Virus record (IMG/VR): IMGVR_UViG_2563366965_000003
Coordinates: 1 to 18,490 of that record
From: a virus
Taxonomy: Duplodnaviria; Heunggongvirae; Uroviricota; Caudoviricetes
Reading direction: 5' to 3' (one strand)
DNA length: 18,490 nt
In this document: piece by piece, positions 3,437 to 15,469 of the stretch
How the letters are laid out: each line of letters begins with the position of its first letter
How positions within the stretch are numbered: the first letter of the stretch is position 1
The notes under the pieces: model-generated
Database searches by the model: none
What the model saw: the letters and a program-made list of their open reading frames with translations, nothing else
What the model was told of the DNA's origin: nothing
Program-made: the position numbers and the translations under genes

Positions 3437-3997
3437 ATGAAGAAGATAATATTATTAGCCATGATTATTGGTTCTTTAACAGGTTGCGCTAGTGTGCCAC
3501 CATTGAATTTTTCAACACCTAACGTGGGAGTTAGCCAGAAAAAAATAGATGCTGAAATTAAGTCATTAACGGTATCACTTGCTCGTCCAGATGAGCAGAA
3601 AGGGGATATCACTGCTGGTATGGAGGCTATAACTCCAATTTGGCGTGAATCTTTGCAGGAAGCACTCGACCGAATGACTATTTTTCGTGATAGTTCACCA
3701 AATACGGTTAGCTTAAATGTTAAAGTGTTGGCTCTTGACGTTCCTGCTTTTGGTGTTTCAATGACAACTAAAGCAATTGCAAGGTATGAAATAATCAACC
3801 GTGCGAATGGTGATATTATATATACGCAGGATATTGAGTCTACCGGTACTGTTCCAGCCAGTTACGCATTCTACGGTATTGTTCGAGCACGCGAATCTGT
3901 TAATCGCGCGGTGCAAAACAACATAACGCAGTTCTTGCAAGCATTAGAAAGTGTTGATCTTTCTCGTCCAATGTTTCCTGTTAGGGTAGCTAAATGA
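3437..3997 (+). CDS. lipoprotein of unknown function, likely outer-membrane targeted
   Basis: 186 aa; signal peptide plus lipobox MKKIILLAMIIGSLTG-C (Cys17, +2 Ala); stop overlaps next gene start (ATGA); faint pattern resemblance to YajG-type lipoproteins, from memory only. Confidence 0.7.
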   Translation: MKKIILLAMIIGSLTGCASVPPLNFSTPNVGVSQKKIDAEIKSLTVSLARPDEQKGDITAGMEAITPIWRESLQEALDRMTIFRDSSPNTVSLNVKVLALDVPAFGVSMTTKAIARYEIINRANGDIIYTQDIESTGTVPASYAFYGIVRARESVNRAVQNNITQFLQALESVDLSRPMFPVRVAK

Positions 3998-4446
3998 AGC
4001 GATTATTCGTAATTGCTCCACTCTTAGTGTTGGTTGGATGCGCACAAAATATATCGCCAAATAGTTATTCTGTTGGCTCTGTGGGCATGGTTAATCGAAC
4101 TATCGCTGGTACAGTTATTAGTGCTAGGGGGGTTGATATCAGTGGGACTTCCGCGTTAGGCGGGACTGCTGGGGCTGCCGTGGGGGCAACCGCTGGTTCT
4201 GCGCTTGGTGGGGGAGTTCGTTCTAATATCGTTGGTGCCGTTGGTGGTGCAGTCATTGGTGGTATTGCCGGGGCAGCAATCGAATCTTCAGCAACAAAAC
4301 AAACAGGCATGGAATATGTTGTCGAAACTGAGAATGGGAATTTAATGACCATTGTTCAAGGCAAAGATCCGTTATTTACTCAAGGAAGTAAGGTCCTTGT
4401 TTTATACGGAAACCCTTCTCGCATAATAACAGACCCGCGTCACTAA
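3994..4446 (+). CDS. SlyB-like glycine-zipper outer-membrane lipoprotein (PCP / 17-kDa-antigen family)
   Basis: 150 aa; lipobox LLVLVG-C (Cys16); long Gly/Ala-rich zipper GTSALGGTAGAAVGATAGSALGGGVRSNIVGAVGGAVIGGIAGAAI followed by a beta-rich C-terminal domain; overall architecture parallels E. coli SlyB. Confidence 0.75.
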   Translation: MKRLFVIAPLLVLVGCAQNISPNSYSVGSVGMVNRTIAGTVISARGVDISGTSALGGTAGAAVGATAGSALGGGVRSNIVGAVGGAVIGGIAGAAIESSATKQTGMEYVVETENGNLMTIVQGKDPLFTQGSKVLVLYGNPSRIITDPRH

Positions 4447-4636
4447 CATACCTTTTGATTTTGTAAAATCAATTCGTAATAATAAAGTCATCGGAGCTTG
4501 AACAACTCCGGTGACTTCTGCGCTAAACGGGGACGTTTATGCGCACATACAATCCAAACTCTCTTCTCCCTTCACAGATGCAGAAATGCACCTGCGATTT
4601 TTTGCATCCAGCGTCTGACCTCTGCGGAGGTGAAGC

Positions 4637-5092
4637 GTGAACCTACCACAAGATGGCATCAAACTGCATCGCGGTAACTTCACCGCTATCGGCCAGCAGA
4701 TCCAGCCTTATCTGGAGGACGGAAAATGCTTTCGCATGGTGCTTAAACCGTGGCGTGAGAAACGCAGTCTTTCCCAGAATGCACTCAGCCACATGTGGTA
4801 CAGCGAAATCAGTGAATACCTCATCAGCAGGGGGAAATCGTTCGCTACCGCAGCATGGGTAAAAGATGCTCTCAAACACACATACCTCGGTTATGAAACC
4901 AAGGACCTGGTTGATGTCGTAACCGGCGAAATCACTACTATCCAGTCGTTACGCCATACCTCCGATCTTGATACCGGAGAGATGTATATCTTCCTGTGTA
5001 AGGTTGAAGCCTGGGCGGTGAATATTGGCTGCCACCTGACTATTCCGCAGAGCTGCGAGTTCCAGCAGCTCCGCGACAAACAGGAGGCGTAA
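4637..5092 (+). CDS. ninB: NinB-family recombination protein (DLP12 YbcN-like)
   Basis: 151 aa; GTG start after GGAGG; conserved NinB core ([21 protein letters not shown]); first gene of a coupled nin cluster. Confidence 0.8.
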
Positions 5093-5262
5093 TGGCTACA
5101 CCGCTTATTCGTGTCATGAACGGACACATCTACAGAGTACCAAATCGTCGTAAGCGTAAACCGGAGCTGAAGCCTTCCGAAATACCAACACTGTTCGGAT
5201 ATACCGCCAGCCTGGTTGATAAAAAATGGTTGCGACTGGCAGCAAGGAGGAGTCATGGCTGA
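5092..5262 (+). CDS. ninE: NinE-like small protein
   Basis: 56-codon ORF read by hand ([56 protein letters not shown]); ATG overlaps ninB stop (TAATG); below the ORF-track length cutoff. Confidence 0.6.
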   Translation: MATPLIRVMNGHIYRVPNRRKRKPELKPSEIPTLFGYTASLVDKKWLRLAARRSHG

Positions 5263-5545
5263 TTTGAGAAAAGCAGCGCGTGGTCGGGAATGCCAGGTAA
5301 GAATCCCTGGCGTATGTAATGGCAACCCTGAAACGTCTGTACTGGCACATATCCGGCTGACTGGATTGTGCGGCACCGGTACGAAACCGCCAGACCTGAT
5401 TGCCACCATTGCATGTTCTGCCTGCCACGACGAAATCGACCGCCGCACACATTTTGTCGATGCTGCATATGCAAAAGAATGCGCGCTGGAAGGTATGGCG
5501 AGAACACAGGTTATCTGGCTGAAAGAGGGGGTTATTAAGGCGTGA
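5255..5545 (+). CDS. DUF1364-type Cys-rich nin-region protein (DLP12 YbcO-like)
   Basis: 96 aa from ATG at 5255 preceded by AGGAGG; Cys-rich ([11 protein letters not shown]...CSACHDEID); overlaps ninE and rusA. Confidence 0.7.
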
Positions 5546-5904
5546 ATACCTACAGCATCACATTACCCTGGCCTCCGAGCAATAATCGCTATTACCGCCA
5601 TAATCGCGGGCGCACACACATCAGCGCAGAAGGGCAGGCATACCGCGATAACGTCACCCGAATCATTAAAAACGCAATGCTGGATATCGGCCTGGCTATG
5701 CCAGTGAAAATCCGTATTGAGTGCCACATGCCGGATCGCCGTCGCCGTGACCTGGATAATCTGCAAAAAGCCGCTTTTGACGCACTCACCAAAGCAGGTT
5801 TCTGGCTGGATGATGCTCAGGTCGTTGATTACCGCGTTGTGAAGATGCCTGTTACCAAAGGTGGGAGGCTGGAACTGACCATCACCGAAATGGGGAATGA
5901 ATGA
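5542..5904 (+). CDS. rusA: RusA Holliday-junction resolvase
   Basis: 120 aa matching E. coli RusA nearly throughout ([26 protein letters not shown]...[31 protein letters not shown]). Confidence 0.9.
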
Positions 5905-6041
5905 TGTTTGAGTTTAATATGGCAGAACTTCTTCGCCACCGCTGGATGCGCCTGCGCTTATATCGTTTCCCCAGTTCTGTTTTGACCGATTACCGAATAC
6001 TGAGGAATTACGCCAAAACCCTGACAGGAGCAGGAGTATGA
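5901..6041 (+). CDS. ylcG: YlcG-like small protein
   Basis: 46-codon ORF ([46 protein letters not shown]); ATG overlaps rusA stop (ATGA); same position as ylcG in DLP12. Confidence 0.5.
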
Positions 6042-6126
6042 AGTCAGAGATAACAATCAACTAATACTGTTTTATTGATTTTTGCTTGTAATTGGCGTTC
6101 TGGTCTGATTTTTGTGGAGTAAGTTG

Positions 6127-6510
6127 ATGCGTGATATTCAGATGGTTCTTGAGCGTTGGGGAGCGTGGGCGGCTAATAATCATGAAGATGTGACCTGGTC
6201 GTCCATTGCCGCCGGTTTTAAGGGATTAATTACTTCAAAAGTAAAATCTCGCCCGCAATGTTGTGACGATGACGCGATGATCATTTGCGGGTGCATGGCC
6301 CGTCTGAAAAAGAACAACAGCGATTTGCACGATTTATTAGTAGATTATTATGTAGTCGGTATGACATTCATGTCACTGGCAGGTAAGCATTGCTGCTCTG
6401 ATGGTTATATCGGGAAAAGGTTACAGAAGGCTGAGGGTATAATTGAAGGGATGTTAATGGCATTAGATATCCGGTTAGAGATGGATATCGTTGTTAATAA
6501 CTCTAATTAA
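6127..6510 (+). CDS. quuD: late-gene antiterminator Q (DLP12 QuuD-like)
   Basis: 127 aa from ATG at 6127 with GGAG 7 nt upstream (ORF track starts at TTG 6112); Cys-rich zinc-binding region ([13 protein letters not shown]...HCCSDG); directly follows rusA/ylcG as in lambdoid late-control modules. Confidence 0.75.
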
Positions 6511-6542
6511 TATGCCAATTGTTTACTAAAAATTATTAAAAA

Positions 6543-6560
6543 TGGGGCGTTGAGACGCCC
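6543..6560 (-). terminator. stem-loop; probable intrinsic terminator for the convergent porin gene
   Basis: GGGGCGT/ACGCCCC 7-bp stem; on the minus strand followed by ATTTTTAATAATTTTT; two further hairpins at 6628-6649 and 6650-6683 lie between Q and the porin stop. Confidence 0.4.
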
Positions 6561-6698
6561 CCAAAAATAAAGGGTAATATATAACAGAAGGTTTATATAG
6601 TTAGAAGCAAGGTTGTGCTCCTAAAGGAAGTGGCTTGAGGGAGCCACTTATATGTTGGGGAGGCAAAGCCTCCCGCAACATATCTTTTAGTAATCAAA

Positions 6699-7781
6699 TT
6701 AGAACTGGTAAACCATACCTACAGCAACGATATCATCGGTAGCAACGCCAGATGCTTTCGTGAAATCGCTCTTATCAATCAGGTTGATTTTGTAATCAAC
6801 AAAAGTGGACATATTTTTGTTGAAGTAATAGGTTGCACCTACATCAATATATTCAACCAGGTCCTGATCACCCCACGCACCCAAGTCTTTTCCTTTAGAT
6901 TGCAGGTAAGCAACGGACGGACGCAGACCGAAGTCGAACTGATATTGTGCAACTACTTCGAAGTTTTGTGCTTTGTTGGCAATATGGTTATTACCAAAAA
7001 CAGTCATGTTCTGGGTTTCAGAATAGGTGGTAGCCAGATAGATGTTGTTCGCATCATATTTCAGACCAGCTGCCCATACTTCAGCATTTTGACCAGATGC
7101 ATTCAGGCTGTTGTTACCGTAGATAACCTGATTATTAGTGCGGTCAGATTTAGCATAGGTTGCACCTACACCGAATCCTTCATACTCATAAGTAGTGGAG
7201 AAACCGAAACCATCACCATTAGCTTCAGTTACGTCAGTGCGGTCATTTTTACCCTGATACTGAGCAGCAAAGTTCAGACCATCAACCAGACCAAAGAAGT
7301 CATTGTTACGATAAGTTGCAACACCTGTGGTGCGACCAGTCATGAATACATCTGTTTGGGTCCAGGTATCGCCACCGAATTCTGGCAGAACGTCGGTCCA
7401 TGCACCAATATCGTATGCTACACCGTAGTTACGGCCATAATCGATGGAGCCGTAGTCACCGAATTTCAGGCCAGCGAAGGCAAGACGGGTTTTATCTTTG
7501 GAGGAACCTTGAGATTCAGCGCGGTTGCCTTTGAATTCATATTCCCACTGACCGAAACCAGTCAGTTGATCGTTGATTTGGGTTTCACCTTTGAAGCCAA
7601 GACGGGCATAAGTAGTATCACCATCATCTGCATCATTAGAGGAGAAGTAGTGCTTAGCATTAACTTTCCCGTACAGATCCAGCTTGTTACTGTCTTTATT
7701 ATAAATTTCAGCTGCCTGAGCAGACATCGCCATCAGTACTGATGCAGCTACAGCAGAAATTGCCACTGTTAATTTTTTCAT
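6699..7781 (-). CDS. nmpC: general porin, OmpC/NmpC/Lc family (prophage lysogenic-conversion porin), apparently intact
   Basis: 360 aa from ATG at 7781 ([23 protein letters not shown] signal peptide, AEIYNKD mature start, C-terminal ...VGMVYQF); sits between Q and the lysis cassette as nmpC does in DLP12 and lc in PA-2. Confidence 0.85.
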
Positions 7782-8207
7782 CGTGAGCCCTTTTTTTGAA
7801 CTATTATTAAAAAATGATGTCACTGCGCGATAAATATTCATCTAATCAATGTGATTATTTCAAGATGTAAGTTTTGGTTTCTCATTTGATTTGTGAAGTA
7901 GATCTCTATTTTTATCTGAACTTTTTCTATCGAATCCTATTCATGGCTCTTGGCTGAATAAAAATAAATCTATTAGCCAATTTATATTAATGGCTGTTAT
8001 TTATGAGTGCTCTATAATTTGAAGATTCAATTTAAACCAGCTAAAAATAACGCTGGAAATTATTTGTTGGTTATTTGTTGAGATTTGCTTATGTATTTGT
8101 AGTGGTGTTTTCAATACTCGGTAGCATTCTCGCAAATATCATTTAGTGGTTTACGTACGTAAAAAATTGGTTATGCTGTTAAGAGTGGTTACTTCGTCAC
8201 ACAGCTT

Positions 8208-8236
8208 AAACCCGCCGTCGAGCGGGTTTTTCCATT
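8208..8236 (+). terminator. intrinsic terminator upstream of the lysis cassette (tR'-like)
   Basis: AAACCCGC cgtcga GCGGGTTTTTCCATTTTTT: GC-rich stem followed by T-runs on the plus strand, about 130 nt upstream of the holin start. Confidence 0.45.
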
Positions 8237-8368
8237 TTTTGAGTCTCGATATTAGCTGATAACCCAATACCTGAGTTATTCACTGACTCCGAGTCTGTTA
8301 CGTTTCTGCTTTTTTGCGATACGTTGTATTCCCTCAATTTACACCCGCTTTGTCTGCGAGGTGGGGTT

Positions 8369-8584
8369 ATGAAATCCATGGATAAGTTAACAACGGGTGT
8401 CGCCTATGGCACCTCAGCAGGTAGTGCCGGTTACTGGTTTTTACAGCTGCTCGATAAAGTCACGCCCTCACAGTGGGCAGCAATAGGTGTGCTGGGTAGC
8501 CTGGTATTTGGCCTGCTGACGTACCTGACAAACCTTTATTTCAAGATTAAAGAAGATAAGCGCAAGGCTGCGAGAGGTGAATAA
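8369..8584 (+). CDS. essD: class II pinholin (phage 21 S21 / DLP12 EssD type) with dual-start motif
   Basis: 71 aa ([26 protein letters not shown]...[15 protein letters not shown]); Met1-Lys-Ser-Met4 dual start; GAGGTGGGG upstream; two TMDs. Confidence 0.85.
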
Positions 8585-9081
8585 TGCCTCCATCATTACG
8601 AAAAGCCGTTGCTGCTGCTATTGGTGGCGGAGCAATTGCTATAGCATCAGTGTTAATTACTGGCCCAAGTGGTAACGATGGTCTGGAAGGTGTCAGCTAC
8701 GTACCATACAAAGATATCGTTGGCGTATGGACTGTATGTCACGGACACACCGGAAAAGACATCATGCTCGGTAAAACGTATACCAAAGCAGAATGCAAAG
8801 CACTCTTGAATAAAGACCTTGCCACTGTCGCCAGACAAATTAACCCGTACATCAAAGTCGATATACCGGAAACAACGCGCGGCGCTCTTTACTCATTCGT
8901 TTACAACGTGGGTGCTGGCAATTTCAGAACATCGACGCTTCTTCGCAAAATAAACCAGGGCGATATCAAAGGCGCATGTGATCAGCTACGTCGCTGGACA
9001 TATGCTGGCGGTAAGCAATGGAAAGGTCTCATGACTCGTCGTGAGATTGAGCGTGAAATCTGTTTGTGGGGTCAGCAATGA
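8584..9081 (+). CDS. rrrD: SAR endolysin (phage 21 R21 / DLP12 RrrD-type lysozyme)
   Basis: 165 aa; Gly/Ala-rich weakly hydrophobic N-terminal signal-anchor-release domain ([18 protein letters not shown]) then lysozyme domain; ATG overlaps holin stop (TAATG). Confidence 0.85.
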
Positions 9082-9539
9082 ACAGAGTAACCGCGATTAT
9101 CTCCGCTCTGGTTATCTGCATCATCGTCTACCTGTCATGGGCTGTTAATCATTACCGTGATAACGCCATTACCTACAAAGCCCAGCGCGACAAAAATGCC
9201 AGAGAACTGAAGCTGGCGAACGCGGCAATTACTGACATGCAGATGCGTCAGCGTGATGTTGCTGCGCTCGATGCAAAATACACGAAGGAGTTAGCTGATG
9301 CGAAAGCTGAAAATGATGCTCTGCGTGATGATGTTGCCGCTGGTCGTCGTCGGTTGCACATCAAAGCAGTCTGTCAGTCAGTGCGTGAAGCCACCACCGC
9401 CTCCGGCGTGGATAATGCAGCCTCCCCCCGACTGGCAGACACCGCTGAACGGGATTATTTCACCCTCAGAGAGAGGCTGATCACTATGCAAAAACAACTG
9501 GAAGGAACCCAGAAGTATATTAATGAGCAGTGCAGATAG
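9078..9539 (+). CDS. rzpD: Rz i-spanin (lambda type)
   Basis: 153 aa from ATG at 9078 ([29 protein letters not shown]...), matching lambda Rz except a few residues; N-terminal TMD. Confidence 0.85.
9298..9480 (+). CDS. rzoD: Rz1 o-spanin lipoprotein, embedded in the +1 frame of Rz
   Basis: 60 aa ([24 protein letters not shown]...[16 protein letters not shown]); lipobox VVG-C, proline-rich; wholly inside the Rz reading frame. Confidence 0.8.
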
Positions 9540-9570
9540 AGTTGCCCATATCGATGGGCAACTCATGCAA

Positions 9571-9864
9571 TTATTGTGAGCAATACACACGCGCTTCCAG
9601 CGGAGTATAAATGCCTAAAGTAATAAAACCGAGCAATCCATTTACGAATGTTTGCTGGGTTTCTGTTTTAACAACATTTTCTGCGCCGCCACAAATTTTG
9701 GCTGCATCGACAGTTTTCTTCTGCCCAATTCCAGAAACGAAGAAATGATGGGTGATGGTTTCCTTTGGTGCTACTGCTGCCGGTTTGTTTTGAACAGTAA
9801 ACGTCTGTTGAGCACATCCTGTAATAAGCAGGGCCAGCGCAGTAGCGAGTAGCATTTTTTTCAT
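9571..9864 (-). CDS. bor: Bor lipoprotein (serum-resistance lysogenic-conversion protein)
   Basis: 97 aa (MKKMLLATALALLITGCAQQTFTVQNKPAAVAPKETITHHFFVSGIGQKKTVDAAKICGG...), lambda Bor as I recall it. Confidence 0.9.
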   Translation of the reverse strand: MKKMLLATALALLITGCAQQTFTVQNKPAAVAPKETITHHFFVSGIGQKKTVDAAKICGGAENVVKTETQQTFVNGLLGFITLGIYTPLEARVYCSQ

Positions 9865-10154
9865 GGTGTTATTCCCGATGCTTTTTGAAGTTCGCAGAAT
9901 CGTATGTGTAGAAAATTAAACAAACCCTAAACAATGAGTTGAAATTTCATATTGTTAATATTTATTAATGTATGTCAGGTGCGATGAATCGTCATTGTAT
10001 TCCCGGATTAACTATGTCCACAGCCCTGACGGGGAACTTCTCTGCGGGAGTGTCCGGGAATAATTAAAAACGATGCACACAGGGTTTAGCGCGTACACGT
10101 ATTGCATTATGCCAACGCCCCGGTGCTGACACGGAAGAAACCGGACGTTATGAT

Positions 10155-10688
10155 TTAGCGTGGAAAGATTTGTGTAGTGTTCTGAATGCTCTCAGTAAAT
10201 AGTAATGAATTATCAAAGGTATAGTAATATCTTTTATGTTCATGGATATTTGTAACCCATCGGAAAACTCCTGCTTTAGCAAGATTTTCCCTGTATTGCT
10301 GAAATGTGATTTCTCTTGATTTCAACCTATCATAGGACGTTTCTATAAGATGCGTGTTTCTTGAGAATTTAACATTTACAACCTTTTTAAGTCCTTTTAT
10401 TAACACGGTGTTATCGTTTTCTAACACGATGTGAATATTATCTGTGGCTAGATAGTAAATATAATGTGAGACGTTGTGACGTTTTAGTTCAGAATAAAAC
10501 AATTCACAGTTTAAATCTTTTCGCACTTGATCGAATATTTCTTTAAAAATGGCAACCTGAGCCATTGGTAAAACCTTCCATGTGATACGAGGGCGCGTAG
10601 TTTGCATTATCGTTTTTATCGTTTCAATCTGGTCTGACCTCTTTGTGTTTTGTTGATGATTTATGTCAAATATTAGGAATGTTTTCAC
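10155..10688 (-). CDS. DUF1398-type protein (DLP12 YbcV-like / lambda right-end orf)
   Basis: 177-aa ORF (alternative start at internal MQTTRPR gives about 150 aa); position after bor matches the lambda/DLP12 right end. Confidence 0.65.
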
Positions 10689-10850
10689 TTAATAGTATTG
10701 GTTGCGTAACAAAGTGCGGTCCTGCTGGCATTCTGGAGGGAAATACAACCGACAGATGTATGTAAGGCCAACGTGCTCAAATCTTCATACAGAAAGATTT
10801 GAAGTAATATTTTAACCGCTAGATGAAGAGCAAGCGCATGGAGCGACAAA

Positions 10851-11057
10851 ATGAATAAAGAACAATCTGCTGATGATCCCTCCGTGGATCTGATTCGTGT
10901 AAAAAATATGCTTAATAGCACCATTTCTATGAGTTACCCTGATGTTGTAATTGCATGTATAGAACATAAGGTGTCTCTGGAAGCATTCAGAGCAATTGAG
11001 GCAGCGTTGGTGAAGCACGATAATAATATGAAGGATTATTCCCTGGTGGTTGACTGA
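10851..11057 (+). CDS. YbcW-like small protein
   Basis: 68 aa ([40 protein letters not shown]...); position and length as DLP12 ybcW. Confidence 0.5.
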
Positions 11058-11221
11058 TCACCATAACTGCTAATCATTCAAACTATTTAGCCTGTGACAG
11101 AGCCAACACGCAGTCTGTCACTGTCAGGAAAGTGGTAAAACTGCAACTCAATTACTGCAATGCCCTCGTAATTAAGTGAATTTACAATATCGTCCTGTTC
11201 GGAGGGAAGAACGCGGGATGT

Positions 11222-11416
11222 TCATTCTTCATCACTTTTAATTGATGTATATGCTCTCTTTTCTGACGTTAGTCTCCGACGGCAGGCTTCAATGACCCAG
11301 GCTGAGAAATTCCCGGACCCTTTTTGCTCAAGAGCGATGTTAATTTGTTCAATCATTTGGTTAGGAAAGCGGATGTTGCGGGTTGTTGTTCTGCGGGTTC
11401 TGTTCTTCGTTGACAT
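11222..11416 (-). CDS. YlcI-like small basic protein (DUF3950)
   Basis: 64 aa (MSTKNRTRRTTTRNIRFPNQMIEQINIALEQKGSGNF...); last gene before cos as in the lambda/DLP12 right end. Confidence 0.55.
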   Translation of the reverse strand: MSTKNRTRRTTTRNIRFPNQMIEQINIALEQKGSGNFSAWVIEACRRRLTSEKRAYTSIKSDEE

Positions 11417-11559
11417 GAGGTTGCCCCGTATTCAGTGTCGCTGATTTGTATTGTCTGAAGTTGTTTTTACGTTAAGTTGATGCAGATCAATTAATACGAT
11501 ACCTGCGTCATAATTGATTATTTGACGTGGTTTGATGGCCTCCACGCACGTTGTGATAT

Positions 11560-11800
11560 GTAGATGATAATCATTATCACTTTACGGGTCCTTTCCGGTG
11601 ATCCGACAGGTTACGGGGCGGCGACCTCGCGGGTTTTCGCTATTTATGAAAATTTTCCGGTTTAAGGCGTTTCCGTTCTTCTTCGTCATAACTTAATGTT
11701 TTTATTTAAAATACCCTCTGAAAAGAAAGGAAGCGACAGGTGCTGAAAGCGTGCTTTTTGGCCTCTGTCGTTTCCTTTCTCTGTTTTTGTCCGTGGAATG
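11560..11800. other. lambda cos site (cosQ-cosN-cosB); cosN 12-nt cohesive end at 11616-11627
   Basis: ...TTACGGGTCCTTTCCGGTGATCCGACAGGTTACG | GGGCGGCGACCTCGCGGGTTTTCGCTATTTATGAAAATTTTCCGGTTTAAGGCG... reproduces the lambda right and left genome ends as I recall them. Confidence 0.85.
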
Positions 11801-11804
11801 AACA

Positions 11805-11864
11805 ATGGAAGTCAACAAAAAGCAGCTGGCTGACATTTTCGGTGCGAGTATAAGTTCTGATTAG
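11805..11864 (+). pseudogene. nu1: nu1 (terminase small subunit) stump: 16 native codons, then deletion junction and premature stop
   Basis: ATGGAAGTCAACAAAAAGCAGCTGGCTGACATTTTCGGTGCGAGTAT = MEVNKKQLADIFGASI; identity to lambda ends at about 11851, followed by SSD-stop. Confidence 0.75.
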
Positions 11865-11886
11865 CCAGGTAACACAGTGTTATGAC

Positions 11887-11914
11887 AGCCCGCCGGTTCA
11901 GGCGGGCTTTTTTG
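11887..11914 (+). terminator. intrinsic terminator immediately upstream of stf
   Basis: AGCCCGCC ggttca GGCGGGCT followed by TTTTTT. Confidence 0.55.
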
Positions 11915-11924
11915 TGGGGTGAAT

Positions 11925-14888
11925 ATGGCAGTAAAGATTTCAGGTGTACTGAAAGACAGCACAGGAAAACCGGTACAGAACTGCACAATCCAGCTGAAAG
12001 CAAAACGTAACAGCACCGCGGTGGTGGTGAACACGCTGGCCTCAGAAAATCCGGATGAAGCCGGGCGTTACAGCATGGACGTTGAGTACGGTCAGTACAG
12101 CGTTATTCTGTTGGTGGAAGGATTCCCGCCGTCACATGCCGGGACCATCACCGTGTATGAAGATTCCCGACCCGGTACGCTGAATGATTTTCTCGGTGCC
12201 ATGACGGAGGATGATGCCCGTCCGGAGGCTCTGCGCCGTTTTGAACTGATGGTGGAAGAGGTGGCGCGTAACGCGTCCGCAGTGGCACAGAACACGGCAG
12301 CCGCGAAGAAGTCAGCCAGTGATGCCAGCACATCTGCCAGTGAGGCGGCAACTCATACAACCGATGCTGCAGGCTCAGCTCGTGCCGCCAGCACGTCAGC
12401 CGGACAGGCTGCATCATCTGCTCAGTCAGCATCTTTCAGCGCAGGAACGGCATCAACAAAGGCCAGTGAAGCATCGAAAAGTGCTGCTGCTGCAGAGTCC
12501 TCAAAAAGCGCGGCAGCTACCAGTGCCGCTGCGGCGAAAACGTCAGAAACGAATGCGGCAGCGTCACAACAATCAGCAGCCACTTCTGCATCCGCCGCGA
12601 CCACGAAGGCGTCAGAAGCTGCCACCTCAGCCCGGGATGCGGCGGCCTCAAAAGAGGCGGCAAAATCATCAGAAACGAGCGCAGCCTCGAGCGCCAGTAG
12701 TGCAGCCTCCTCGGCAACAGCGGCAGGAAATTCCGCGAAGGCGGCAAAAACGTCCGAGACGAACGCTAAGTCTTCTGAGACGGCAGCAGCACAGAGTGCC
12801 TCCGCAGCAGCAGACTCAAAAACAGCGGCTGCCTCATCTGCCAGCGCCGCGTCAACAAATGCCGGGCAGGCCTCAGCCAGTGCCACCGCTGCCGGAAAGT
12901 CGGCAGAAAGCGCCGCATCATCCGCTTCAACAGCCACAACGAAGGCTGGCGAAGCCACTGAACAGGCCACGGCAGCAGCGAGGTCAGCTTCCGCAGCGAA
13001 GACATCCGAAACGAACGCGAAAGCGTCGGAAACCAGCGCAGAATCCTCAAAAACGGCTGCCGCATCGTCAGCCAGTTCGGCGGCGTCATCGGCATCATCG
13101 GCGTCTGCTTCAAAAGATGAGGCGACCAGACAGGCGTCAGCAGCGAAGGGCAGCGCCACGACGGCATCCACGAAGGCGACAGAGGCAGCTGGCAGTGCGA
13201 CGGCGGCAGCTCAGAGCAAAAGTACGGCGGAATCCGCGGCAACGCGCGCCGAGACAGCAGCAAAACGGGCAGAGGATATTGCATCCGCCGTGGCGCTTGA
13301 GGATGCGAGCACGACGAAAAAGGGGATAGTACAGCTCAGCAGTGCGACTAACAGCACTTCCGAGTCACTGGCGGCAACGCCAAAAGCCGTTAAGGCCGCG
13401 TATGAGCTGGCTAACGGGAAATACACCGCACAGGATGCAACGACAGCACAGAAAGGGATAGTTCAGCTTAGCAACGCGACCAACAGCACATCTGAAATGC
13501 TGGCGGCAACGCCAAAGTCGGTAAAGGCAGCCTATGACCTTGCTAACGGGAAATATACTGCTCAGGACGCTACGACAGCACAAAAAGGAATTGTCCAGCT
13601 CAGTAGTGCAACCAACAGCGCATCTGAAACGCTTGCCGCGACACCGAAAGCAGTGAAAGCAGCTAATGATAATGCGAATGGTCGGGTACCTTCTGCCCGT
13701 AAGGTGAATGGTAAGGCGCTTTCAGCGGATATAACACTGACGCCGAAAGATATTGGTACGCTTAACTCAACAACAATGTCATTCAGCGGTGGTGCTGGTT
13801 GGTTCAAATTAGCAACGGTAACCATGCCACAGGCGAGTTCTGTTGTTTCAATTACGTTGATTGGTGGCGCGGGATTTAACGTGGGGTCACCTCAACAGGC
13901 AGGTATATCTGAACTTGTTTTGCGTGCAGGTAATGGTAATCCGAAGGGGATTACTGGTGCTTTATGGCAGCGCACATCGACAGGGTTTACAAATTTTGCC
14001 TGGGTCAATACATCTGGTGATACTTACGATATTTACGTTGCAATCGGAAATTATGCGACTGGTGTAAATATTCAATGGGATTATACCAGTAATGCCAGCG
14101 TGACGATTCATACGTCACCAGCATATTCTGCTAATAAGCCGGAAGGGTTAACGGACGGTACAGTTTATTCACTCTATACGCCATCAGAGCAGTTTTATCC
14201 GCCTGGCGCACCAATCCCGTGGCCATCAGATACCGTTCCGTCTGGCTATGCCCTGATGCAGGGGCAGACTTTTGACAAATCTGCATACCCGAAACTTGCA
14301 GCCGCTTATCCGTCAGCCGTGATCCCTGATATGCGTGGCTGGACGATTAAGGGCAAACCCGCCAGTGGTCGTGCCGTATTGTCTCAGGAACAGGACGGCA
14401 TTAAATCGCACACCCACAGCGCCAGCGCATCCAGTACGGATTTGGGGACGAAAAACACATCGTCGTTTGATTACGGAACCAAATCCACGAATAACACCGG
14501 GGCGCATACCCATAGTATTAGCGGGACTGCAAATAGTGCCGGTGCGCACCAACACAAGAGTTCCGGTGCATTTGGTGGCACGAACACGAGCATTTTCCCT
14601 AATGGTTATACCGCGATTTCAAATCTAAGCGCGGGGATTATGAGCACAACAAGCGGTAGTGGCCAGACTCGTAATGCAGGGAAGACATCATCAGATGGTG
14701 CTCATACCCACTCGCTGTCCGGCACTGCTGCAAGCGCAGGCGCACATGCACATACTGTCGGTATTGGTGCTCATACGCACTCCGTTGCGATTGGCTCACA
14801 CGGACACACCATCACCGTTAACGCTGCTGGTAACGCGGAAAACACCGTCAAAAACATCGCATTTAACTATATTGTGAGGCTTGCATAA
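11925..14888 (+). CDS. stf: side tail fibre protein Stf (lambda-type, expanded repeats)
   Basis: 987 aa from ATG 11925 ([31 protein letters not shown]...), lambda Stf N-terminus; Ala/Ser/Thr-rich shaft; three tandem fibre repeats; His-rich tip ending ...[14 protein letters not shown]. Confidence 0.9.
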
Positions 14889-15469
14889 TGGCATTCAGAA
14901 TGAGTGAACAACCACGGACCATAAAAATTTATAATCTGCTGGCCGGAACTAATGAATTTATTGGTGAAGGTGATGCATATATTCCGCCTCATACAGGTCT
15001 GCCAGCAAACAGTACCGATATTGCACCGCCAGATATTCCGGCTGGCTTCGTGGCTGTTTTCAACAGTGATGAGTCATCGTGGCATCTTGTTGAAGACCAT
15101 CGGGGTAAAACAGTTTATGACGTGGCATCAGGGGACGCGTTATTTATTTCTGAACTCGGCTCATTACCGGAAAATGTTACCTGGTTATCCCCGGAAGGGG
15201 AGTTTCAGAAGTGGAACGGCACAGCCTGGGTGAAGGATACGGAAGCAGAAAAACTGTTCCGGATCCGGGAGGTGGAAGAAACAAAAAACAGCCTGATGCA
15301 GGTAGCCAGTGAGCATATAGCGCCGCTTCAGGATGCTGTGGATCTGGAAATCGCAACGGAGGAAGAAACCTTGTTGCTGGAAGCCTGGAAAAAGTATCGG
15401 GTATTGCTGAACCGTGTTGATACGTCAACTGCACAGGATATTGAATGGCCAGTAGCACCTATAGGGTAA
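14888..15469 (+). CDS. tfa: tail fibre assembly chaperone Tfa
   Basis: 193 aa ([54 protein letters not shown]...), lambda Tfa; ATG overlaps stf stop (TAATG). Confidence 0.9.

Follow-up and report, generated by a model that had tools for sequence, protein, structure and literature searches.

A lambda-type cos site beside a 16-residue nu1 stump in a DLP12-like prophage at att-lambda

The locus and the surrounding prophage

The sequence analyzed here is a stretch of 18,490 nucleotides (hereafter, the window), in which a cos site is followed by a truncated nu1 gene, the end of lom, a terminator-like hairpin and the tail fiber genes stf and tfa. The features are listed in Table 1. The stf gene is also annotated in the genome of NCTC9040. 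No Rfam match was found in the cos-junction region, and the only Rfam match, IS009, lies within tfa. A promoter for stf created by the fusion was also sought; a single weak sigma-70-like match within cosB, against 1.1 expected by chance, is not significant.

Table 1. Features of the cos-nu1-stf region, in window positions.
Feature	Position	Strand	Description
Lambda-type patch	11540..11599	.	Directly left of cosN; the window has the lambda base at 9 SNPs
cosQ	11586..11592	+	GGGTCCT; packaging-termination subsite; identical to lambda
cosN	11614..11629	+	Cohesive ends GGGCGGCGACCT (11616-11627) plus 2 bp on each side; identical to lambda
I2	11633..11665	+	Lambda bp 18-50, from cosN to cosB; identical to lambda
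cosB R3	11665..11680	+	Lambda bp 50-65; critical TerS binding site (PMC9026076); identical to lambda
I1	11681..11723	+	R3-R2 interval, IHF site (PMC4669245); identical to lambda
cosB R2	11724..11739	-	Lambda bp 109-124, inverted; CTGTCGcTTCCTTTCT; 15/16 positions match lambda
cosB R1	11765..11780	+	Lambda bp 151-166; identical to lambda
nu1 stump	11805..11864	+	ORF of 19 codons, MEVNKKQLADIFGASISSD and a stop; ATG at 11805
Deletion junction	11849..11851	.	TAT microhomology; lambda 237 joined to lambda 19574
lom remnant	11849..11860	+	Final four codons (TAT AAG TTC TGA), last 12 nt of lom; out of the nu1-stump frame
Terminator-like hairpin and T run	11887..11914	+	Intrinsic type, in the lom-stf gap; hairpin 11887-11908; 8-pair stem with 7 G-C pairs
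stf	11925..14888	+	Intact, 987 aa; side tail fiber; Pfam phage_tail_N, Phage_fiber_2, Collar; tblastn to lambda Stf
tfa	14888..15469	+	193 aa; tail fiber assembly chaperone; Pfam Caudo_TAP; 93% identical to lambda Tfa

The prophage lies at att-lambda, between ybhC and ybhB/bioA, and not at argU. Reading from ybhC, its order is int, xis ... exo, bet' fused to 'ren ... quuD, an nmpC-like porin gene, essD, rrrD, rzpD, bor, ybcV, ybcW, ylcI, cos, nu1' fused to 'lom, stf, tfa and an araC-like gene, followed by ybhB and bioA. The immunity and replication block is absent (lambda 32474-40448 is deleted), and O, P and ori are gone. The statements on the attachment sites and on downstream cos sites rest on strain 1332KP, the closest complete genome, whose prophage is 99.9% identical to the window and is flanked by gal-mod-ybhC and ybhB-bio-uvrB. 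In this strain the attL core is exact, the attR core has one mismatch, the P arm is 86% identical to lambda, xis is intact and Int is 99% identical to lambda Int. The late and nin gene order, taken from the PGAP annotation of the 99.9%-identical loci, is DLP12-like; given the att-lambda site and the lambda-like Int, the element is therefore a relative of DLP12 and not DLP12 itself.

The likeness to DLP12 (qsr') of K-12 is close. Its late order is ybcN, ninE, ybcO, rusA, ylcG, quuD, nmpC, essD, rrrD, rzpD, bor, ybcV, ybcW, ylcI, cos and noh, its identity to the window over 4453-11851 is 95.7-96.9%, and an AraC-type regulator is found near its right end. DLP12 has likewise lost the head and tail genes, from just right of cos to the tail-fiber region (lambda 1018 joined to 22119), and its junction consists of nohD-aaaD' fused to tfaD. 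On the other hand, DLP12 is located at argU with its own integrase, retains a full nohD and a fragment of A but no stf, and in K-12 carries an nmpC split by IS5, whereas the element described here has 16 codons of nu1, an intact stf-tfa pair and an intact nmpC-like gene. The cos of the element is also nearer to that of lambda than the DLP12 cos is.

Other identities were considered. Identity with the defective prophage that E. coli B strains carry was rejected, the matches in BL21 and C3029 being only the DE3 or Qin-type cos (query 1-452); a literature search on the identity of that prophage yielded nothing useful. Two ORFs at 3437-4446 were without a match in PADLOC, NCBIfam or Pfam, and a reading of the region as a phage-inducible chromosomal island (PICI) or a defense island was set aside for want of such support. 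A decayed prophage that has a cos but has lost its packaging and virion genes is an ordinary and well-known state.

The deletion junction and its sibling alleles

Three adjoining BLAST matches to lambda (NC_001416) define the junction. Window positions 9078-11615 match lambda 45966-48502 with 99.7% identity, positions 11616-11851 match lambda 1-237 with 2 mismatches and 1 gap, and positions 11849-12832 match lambda 19574-20557 with 86% identity; the breakpoint is therefore lambda 237 joined to 19574. The first-pass annotation had described a cos and nu1 stump that are lambda-like up to about 11851, followed by a jump to the terminator and the start of stf. The alignment agrees with the first part and with the jump, but the right side starts in the end of lom, and the ATG of stf is at 11925 rather than at 11926. 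The first 16 residues encoded by the stump, MEVNKKQLADIFGASI, are those of Nu1, and the ORF then runs on into SSD and a stop. The recognition helix of TerS (residues 17-24, coordinates from PMC9026076) and everything downstream of it are absent, the stump ending one residue before the helix.

Also confirmed was the absence from the window of the terminase, head and tail genes, starting at codon 17 of nu1 and reaching into lom; only stf and its chaperone gene survive. Among 23 lambda late proteins used as tblastn queries, only Nu1 (residues 1-18), Stf and Tfa matched the window; the 18 proteins from A to J, plus Lom, gave no match there. Both flanks of the junction keep the order and orientation of lambda, which identifies a deletion and not an inversion, and the flanks of the 1332KP prophage are ordinary chromosome, so that the inversion raised at first pass as an alternative to a deletion is rejected.

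The junction allele was found in 2 of 5426 complete E. coli genomes (NCTC9040 and 1332KP, sequenced independently), and a 34-mer spanning it had no match in GTDB species representatives, IMG/VR or JGI metagenomes. The prophage itself occurs in 22 complete genomes. Related prophages occupy att-lambda in other E. coli, namely in PEC1009/EC416, in the 23CRST021 group and in the NCTC9087/MS 124-1 group. These siblings are 99.9% identical across the whole window and share the chromosomal site and the bet'-'ren deletion, and they have three other junctions: lambda 700 to lom, lambda 551 to about codon 82 of stf, and lambda 1759 to mid-stf. Some of these alleles truncate stf, and their sizes vary. 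Removal of 884 bp across the older junction turns the PEC1009 allele into that of the window, and a deletion of 890 bp would turn it into the 23CRST021 allele. No shared repeats were found at the ends of these two deletions, only TAT and GA microhomologies, and the near-equality of their sizes was treated as a coincidence. The removal of all the missing genes in a single deletion, as first proposed, is thus unproven: because the sibling junctions differ and the window allele is derivable from that of PEC1009, an origin in two steps is at least as likely as one in a single step of 19.3 kb.

Our preferred reading, to which we assign a probability of roughly 85%, is that the region is the scar of an illegitimate deletion, mediated by microhomology, in a cryptic prophage of DLP12 type at att-lambda, in which cos has been kept passively. 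Cos would owe its survival to the position of the left breakpoint, 237 bp to the right, and not to any part in a working packaging system.

Completeness of the cos site

Base-by-base comparison revealed that cos is identical to that of lambda, ungapped, from bp 48442 to 117, a span that covers cosQ, cosN, I2, R3 and I1. The 7-bp cosQ, which corresponds to lambda 48473-48479, is located about 30 bp left of cosN, as in cos sites of lambda specificity. The 17-mer ACGGGGCGGCGACCTCG around cosN (11613-11629) has 0 mismatches to lambda and a single occurrence in the window, where 0.01 would be expected; with such identity, chance is of no concern. The role of cosQ in packaging termination (PMC4669245) and the definition of cosN (PMC9026076) were taken from the literature, in which a replacement of bp 18-50 (I2) is lethal (PMC4856287) and the spacing between cosN and R3, here the same as in lambda, is important (PMC9026076, PMC4856287). 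The order R3-I1-R2-R1 with an inverted R2, which is that of a lambda-type cosB, is present. Substitutions in the cosN/cosB core would have counted against the intact lambda-like cos described at first pass; cosN, R3, I1 and R1 are unchanged, and the sole change in the core is an A to G in R2, at 11733 (lambda 118). By every known subsite the cos adjoining the Nu1 stump is complete.

These differences bear on the possibility that the site is a fossil, in which the R2 substitution, an altered R2-R1 spacer or the loss of everything beyond lambda 237 blocks terminase assembly. We consider this improbable. The changed R2 position is the equivalent of bp 55 of R3, at the edge of the segment contacted by TerS (bp 55-63; PMC9026076), and the one substitution in the R2-R1 spacer, at 11752, is private to the window. 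However, the same G at 11733 is present in the sibling prophages and in PhiR63_1, a phage with a complete nu1; its GenBank record, that of a complete genome with a named host, suggests a propagating phage. Position 11752 varies across phages (A, G, AG), and DE3, lambda imm21, lambda imm434 and newer lambda records share the 1-bp gap relative to NC_001416 that shortens the spacer. Furthermore, among transitions in conserved R base pairs those in R2 or R1 have the mildest effect (PMC9026076), R2 is less critical than R3 (PMC9026076), R1 is accessory and also less critical than R3 (PMC4669245, PMC9026076), and the terminase of N15 packages lambda DNA although its own cosB has R3 only (PMC9026076). 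As regards the loss to the right, lambda 48442-178, to which window 11555-11792 corresponds, functions as a cos when inserted in a cosmid, with nothing further required (PMC4856287).

The identity with lambda also distinguishes the window from its relatives directly left of cosN, where the siblings, K-12 DLP12 and PhiR63_1 share another, DLP12-type sequence at all nine SNPs of the patch. The length of the lambda-type tract falls between a minimum of 60 bp and a maximum of 641 bp (11092-11732). In experiments, cos-stimulated recombination between lambda and DLP12 through the homology of the cos region, on the left side of cos, yields active recombinant phages (PMC3945230). The patch is consistent with such an exchange between phage and prophage, but it could also have come from any co-resident lambda-type prophage by ordinary RecA recombination, without cutting at cos.

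Passive use of the cos and its meaning

The passively kept cos would still be a competent cis substrate for a terminase of lambda specificity supplied in trans, the element itself encoding neither TerS nor TerL. R3-I1-R2 would serve TerS and IHF as a binding site, with cosN as the target nicked by TerL; the terminase would then keep to the cosB side and move rightwards through stf-tfa and attR into ybhB-bio-uvrB. No second cos was found within 55 kb downstream in 1332KP, with 3 mismatches allowed, so that packaging would lack proper termination and mature transducing particles would be rare. The exposed left end would be expected to stimulate recombination with phage DNA, of which the patch at 11540-11599 may be the footprint. 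If a lambda-type lysogen were located in tandem upstream, the cos could terminate an interval of 44.0 kb, or 91% of the length of lambda.

That a helper terminase may recognize such a cos is a reasonable proposal, and the idea is already established in the literature. Passive prophages in the chromosome, among them partial ones whose end is a cos, are packaged by helper phages from one cos to the next (PMC4669245), and the partial or tandem passive prophages of the Feiss laboratory, like cosmids, have a cos without its own terminase that is used by a helper (PMC4669245, PMC4856287). Those constructs either contain a second cos within packaging range or form multimers on replication, whereas the element has one cos and no replicon. 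PICIs of the cos type, such as EcCICFT073, also lack a terminase, have a lambda-like cosN and need a lambda-like helper for packaging (PMC9026076). In contrast to the element, whose cosB is of the helper type and which has no recognizable PICI genes, PICIs are able to excise and replicate, and the Rpp protein that they encode redirects TerS to a PICI-specific cosB that differs in sequence. No PICI replication module (primase/rep and ori) or regulatory module was found in the window or in the annotated siblings. Because it has no replication or immunity module and, in 1332KP, no second cos within 55 kb downstream, the element is not mobilizable in the PICI or cosmid sense.

A more active role is very unlikely. 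In that reading Int/Xis, terminase and capsids would come from a lambda-type helper, the 23.4-kb element would leave the chromosome through attL and attR and be packaged starting at its own cos, a dimer of 46.8 kb being one example, and cos would be under selection. The att cores, the intact xis and the lambda-like Int of the 1332KP sibling would suit this reading, as would the length of the element, almost exactly half a lambda headful (twice the length is 96.5% of lambda). Cos is, moreover, spared in all the junction alleles (the four at att-lambda, AR_0369 and K-12 DLP12), in which the deletion starts 237-1759 bp right of cosN. However, the handful of alleles is too few to show selection for cos, the truncations of stf and the variation in size among the siblings fit neutral decay, and the allele is rare. 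The element has no origin or O/P, no immunity, and neither pL/N nor cII to drive int-xis; with lambda 32474-40448 deleted, there is no route to concatemers. Its plain lambda-type cosB would not outcompete that of the helper, and neither of the two ORFs at 3437-4446 has a recognizable satellite-type function (PADLOC, NCBIfam, Pfam).

The broader proposal that the retention of cos is not accidental, decayed prophages persisting as helper-exploiting elements or as selected recombination gateways, we regard as similarly unlikely. If it were true, lambda-type phages, including Stx1 phages with a lambda cos, would mobilize the element and the adjacent bio-uvrB, or cos would serve the exchange of late and tail-fiber modules. 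Finally, that the junction is an assembly error, or one edge of an inversion or transposition in which the morphogenesis genes were relocated, is negligible in probability: the source genome is known from the window alone, but the identical junction in two independently sequenced strains, the collinear flanks and the chromosomal borders of the 1332KP prophage all speak against it.

We therefore return to a passively retained cos in a deletion scar. It is important to mention that the literature already describes both helper terminases acting on a passive cos in the chromosome and the cos-stimulated recombination between lambda and DLP12, and that the allele is a new one in a familiar class. 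Beyond bookkeeping its significance is small: it adds one more state, with breakpoints known to the base pair, to the stepwise erosion of lambdoid prophages. The near-identical prophages with four junctions offer a clean system in which to time and order prophage decay, and the patch beside cosN fits, as a natural footprint, the exchange that experiments have demonstrated between lambda and DLP12. As judged from its sequence, the site is a natural, fully lambda-type cos without terminase coding sequence, which could be a passive substrate of packaging or recombination for phages of lambda specificity.

Integrity of cos and the adjacent lambda-type patch

The sequence at 11092-11732, which spans cosQ, cosN, I2, R3 and the I1 interval, is base-for-base identical to that of lambda, and R2 is the only subsite that carries a change (see table). 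The first-pass annotation, which had called cos intact, is therefore correct for every subsite but R2. The R2 substitution corresponds to bp 55 of R3, at the edge of the segment contacted there by the small terminase subunit TerS (bp 55-63; PMC9026076). Compared with NC_001416, the R2-R1 spacer lacks 1 bp; spacers of this length also occur in DE3, lambda imm21, lambda imm434 and more recent lambda records. The window spacer contains one private base (11752), at a site also variable among phages (A, G or AG). The sole deposited phage matching a 38-mer with the R2 variant at its centre is PhiR63_1 (a 47,976-bp record; host ECOR13), which has a full nu1 and the same R2 base as the window.

R3 has been described as the critical site, the same transition being milder in R2 or R1 (PMC9026076); R1 is accessory (PMC4669245). 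Lambda 48442-178 provides a functional cos when inserted in a cosmid (PMC4856287), and the window retains this interval in full (11555 to about 11792). All the sequence features of a cos of lambda specificity are present, and engineered partial or passive prophages and cosmids are close parallels. Based on the subsites identical to lambda, the R2 base of PhiR63_1 and the literature on R3, R1 and the cosmid insert, we predict that the window cos is a competent cis substrate (probability about 0.85-0.9). Inactivation of cos by the R2 change, in spite of its position at the edge of a TerS contact, is on the same grounds unlikely.

Immediately left of cosN, positions 11540-11599 are of the lambda type at nine clustered SNPs, at which the near-identical att-lambda prophages of other E. 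coli (NCTC9040, PEC1009 and NCTC9087 compared over the patch, in a sibling set that includes both same-junction prophages), K-12 DLP12 and PhiR63_1 have a different type in common. The exchanged tract measures 60-641 bp (bounds 11092-11732) and may take in cosQ, cosN, R3 and I1. We interpret the patch as a short gene-conversion tract abutting cosN on the left. It would fit recombination at the window cos, since the left is the side where cos cutting is reported to stimulate recombination: after the cut, terminase remains on the cosB side and the left side is exposed and recombinogenic (PMC3945230). The lambda x DLP12 recombinants that cluster at cos were, in all tested cases, active phages (PMC3945230). 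The same pattern would, however, result from ordinary RecA recombination with a lambda-type prophage resident in the same cell.

Features of the window and of related loci (window coordinates unless stated)
Feature	Position	Lambda counterpart	Remarks
cosQ	11586-11592		GGGTCCT; identical to lambda
cosN cohesive end	11616-11627		identical to lambda
I2		bp 18-50	identical to lambda
R3	11665-11680	bp 50-65	identical to lambda
I1 (IHF) interval			identical to lambda
R2 (inverted)	11724-11739		single change at 11733 (lambda 118 A to G)
R1	11765-11780		identical to lambda
Stump ORF	11805-11864		MEVNKKQLADIFGASISSD, then stop; residues 1-16 are Nu1
lom/stf terminator-like hairpin	11887-11908
stf	start 11925		987 aa; Pfam phage_tail_N, Phage_fiber_2, Collar
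tfa	14888-15469		directly after stf
Allele 1 junction		237 / lom end	this window, NCTC9040, 1332KP
Allele 2 junction		700 / C-terminal part of lom	PEC1009, EC416
Allele 3 junction		551 / stf codon ~82	23CRST021
Allele 4 junction		1759 / mid-stf	NCTC9087, MS 124-1
884-bp deletion	12825-13708 of L003 (PEC1009 locus)		scar at window 11849-11851
890-bp deletion	13139-14028 of L003		scar at 11934-11935 of L039 (23CRST021 locus)
1332KP att sites	741-755 and 543-759 of L037; 15330-15344 of L038		1332KP loci, outside the window

Nature of the element

A search with the whole window matched 22 complete E. coli genomes (at least 80% coverage, 99.9% identity), in which the insertion point lies between ybhC and ybhB-bioA, that is, at att-lambda. 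The PGAP gene order at these loci is exo, bet'-'ren, two unassigned ORFs, ybcN, ninE, ybcO, rusA, ylcG and quuD in the left part; an intact nmpC-type porin gene, essD, rrrD, rzpD, bor, ybcV, ybcW, ylcI and the junction with the nu1 remnant in the right part; and stf, tfa, an AraC-family regulator and IS remnants past this junction. A second internal deletion junction (bet'-'ren at 2827-2831; lambda 32473/40449, 5-bp overlap) has taken out the N-terminal part of bet, then gam, kil, cIII, N, rexAB, cI, cro, cII, O and P, and the N-terminal part of ren; the RecT'-'ren junction is also found in the sibling loci with annotation examined, except NCTC9087. Beyond the window, the 1332KP copy encodes an Int with 99% identity to that of lambda and has an intact xis. 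Its attL core matches exactly, its attR core differs at one position (ACTTTTTTATACTAA), and its P arm shares 86% identity with the lambda P arm. With 23,411 bp, the element is very nearly half the size of a lambda genome.

The combination of lambda-type Int and att sites with a DLP12-like late region indicates a DLP12-like cryptic prophage with a lambda integration module, which by gene content is defective in immunity, replication and morphogenesis. DLP12 of K-12 is the closest known system (95.7-96.9% identity to the window late region), but a separate deletion in DLP12 runs from lambda 1018 (A gene) to lambda 22119 (tfa), and the DLP12 nmpC is split by IS5, in contrast to the intact porin gene of the window. 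The element does not occupy the DLP12 integration site and thus counts as a relative of DLP12. The cos-type PICIs are a more distant parallel, and the element does not show their defining features. A satellite-like, helper-mobilised element would accord with the intact att sites, int and xis and with a dimer at 96.5% of a headful; the lack of a replicon and of a regulatory module, the helper-type cosB and the signs of ongoing neutral erosion argue against it, and we consider this very improbable.

The porin gene (6699-7841, minus strand; 380 aa, OmpC/NmpC-type) is located downstream of quuD and oriented opposite to it. The two unassigned ORFs overlap (3437-3997 and 3994-4446, plus strand; 186 and 150 aa) and are found between 'ren and ybcN, where a moron would typically be placed; no NCBIfam or PADLOC match, and no Pfam match above the cut-off, was obtained for either. 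The 150-aa ORF gave a sub-threshold glycine-zipper match, and the 186-aa ORF is a YajG-family lipoprotein in one RefSeq record. The tfa 3' end holds a full-length Rfam IS009 match (15231-15429, plus strand; 218 bits, gathering score 117). Among the best matches, only 1332KP aligns to window bases 1-27, the other siblings starting at 28; in 1332KP an IS1A copy ends just ahead of the window start.

The junction and its alleles

Alignment with NC_001416 placed window 9078-11615 on lambda 45966-48502 (Rz to the right cohesive end, 99.7% identity), 11616-11851 on lambda 1-237 and 11849-12832 on lambda 19574-20557 (86%). The breakpoint is lambda 237/19574, with TAT (11849-11851) present in both parents, and 19,336 bp are absent relative to lambda: nu1 from codon 17, A, W, B, C, nu3, D, E, FI, FII, Z, U, V, G, T, H, M, L, K, I, J, and lom save its last four codons. 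The cos-adjacent 16-codon nu1 stump joined to stf-side sequence, noticed in the first-pass annotation, is thereby confirmed; the right side, described as the stf upstream region, is indeed near stf but begins in the last 12 nt of lom, and stf itself is present, with its ATG at 11925. The loss of terminase, head and tail genes other than stf and tfa likewise agrees with a tblastn search using 23 lambda late proteins, in which only Nu1 1-18, Stf and Tfa were found in the window. After the Nu1 part, the stump ORF runs out of frame across the lom stop region. The TerS recognition helix (residues 17-24) and wing (residues 31-39; PMC9026076) both lie past the break, so that the stump is without TerS function. 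An artefact or an inversion, the latter raised at first reading as a point to check, can be dismissed, because NCTC9040 and 1332KP, complete genomes sequenced independently, have the identical junction, and both flanks run collinear with lambda.

Four different junctions occur among the near-identical att-lambda prophages (table). Allele 1 was found in 2 of 5426 complete genomes (NCTC9040 and 1332KP), and its junction 34-mer had no match in GTDB species representatives, IMG/VR or JGI metagenome contigs. By whole-window search, five more genomes have the match pattern of 23CRST021 and two more that of NCTC9087 and MS 124-1; AR_0369, a more distant prophage, joins lambda 401 to lom. Alleles 1 and 3 equal allele 2 minus 884 bp (TAT microhomology) and minus 890 bp (GA microhomology), respectively, both deletions spanning the older junction. 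Since allele 4 has A-gene sequence missing from allele 2, there were at least two primary deletions. The window state could have arisen in one step of 19.3 kb or by a further deletion at an older scar; a two-step origin from allele 2 fits equally, and the deletion proposed at first reading need not have been a single one.

The 884- and 890-bp deletions are near-equal in size and offset by ~314 bp, both lying across lambda 700/lom; their ends share only 3-bp and 2-bp microhomologies, and the similar size is probably a coincidence. Within stf there are three internal repeats (13138-13683), every one of which aligns to lambda 20548-20805. In 23CRST021, stf lacks 270 bp (13414-13683), which looks like repeat-number variation, and 13684 is also where the NCTC9087 allele has its right junction.

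Cryptic lambdoid prophages with cos and a truncated nu1/noh are well known; this junction allele is rare and, as far as could be found, undescribed.

Use of cos by a helper terminase

As the element has no terminase, its cos is idle on its own. A helper terminase can initiate at a passive chromosomal prophage cos and terminate at the next cos, initiation requiring cosN and cosB and termination cosQ and cosN, and partial prophages ending at cos have been used in helper-packaging constructs (PMC4669245). Recognition by a helper, suggested at first reading, is therefore reasonable, being established biology for passive prophages and not a new idea. A lambda-specificity terminase would be expected to cut at the cosN cohesive end and then to move to the right, passing stf, tfa and attR before it enters ybhB, bio and uvrB. 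No cos-like sequence was found within the next 55 kb in 1332KP, and normal termination, hence efficient transduction, is thus not expected. Were a lambda-type phage to integrate in tandem upstream, its cos and the window cos would lie 44.0 kb apart (91% of the lambda length); with such a phage downstream, the distance would be 27.9 kb (57%).
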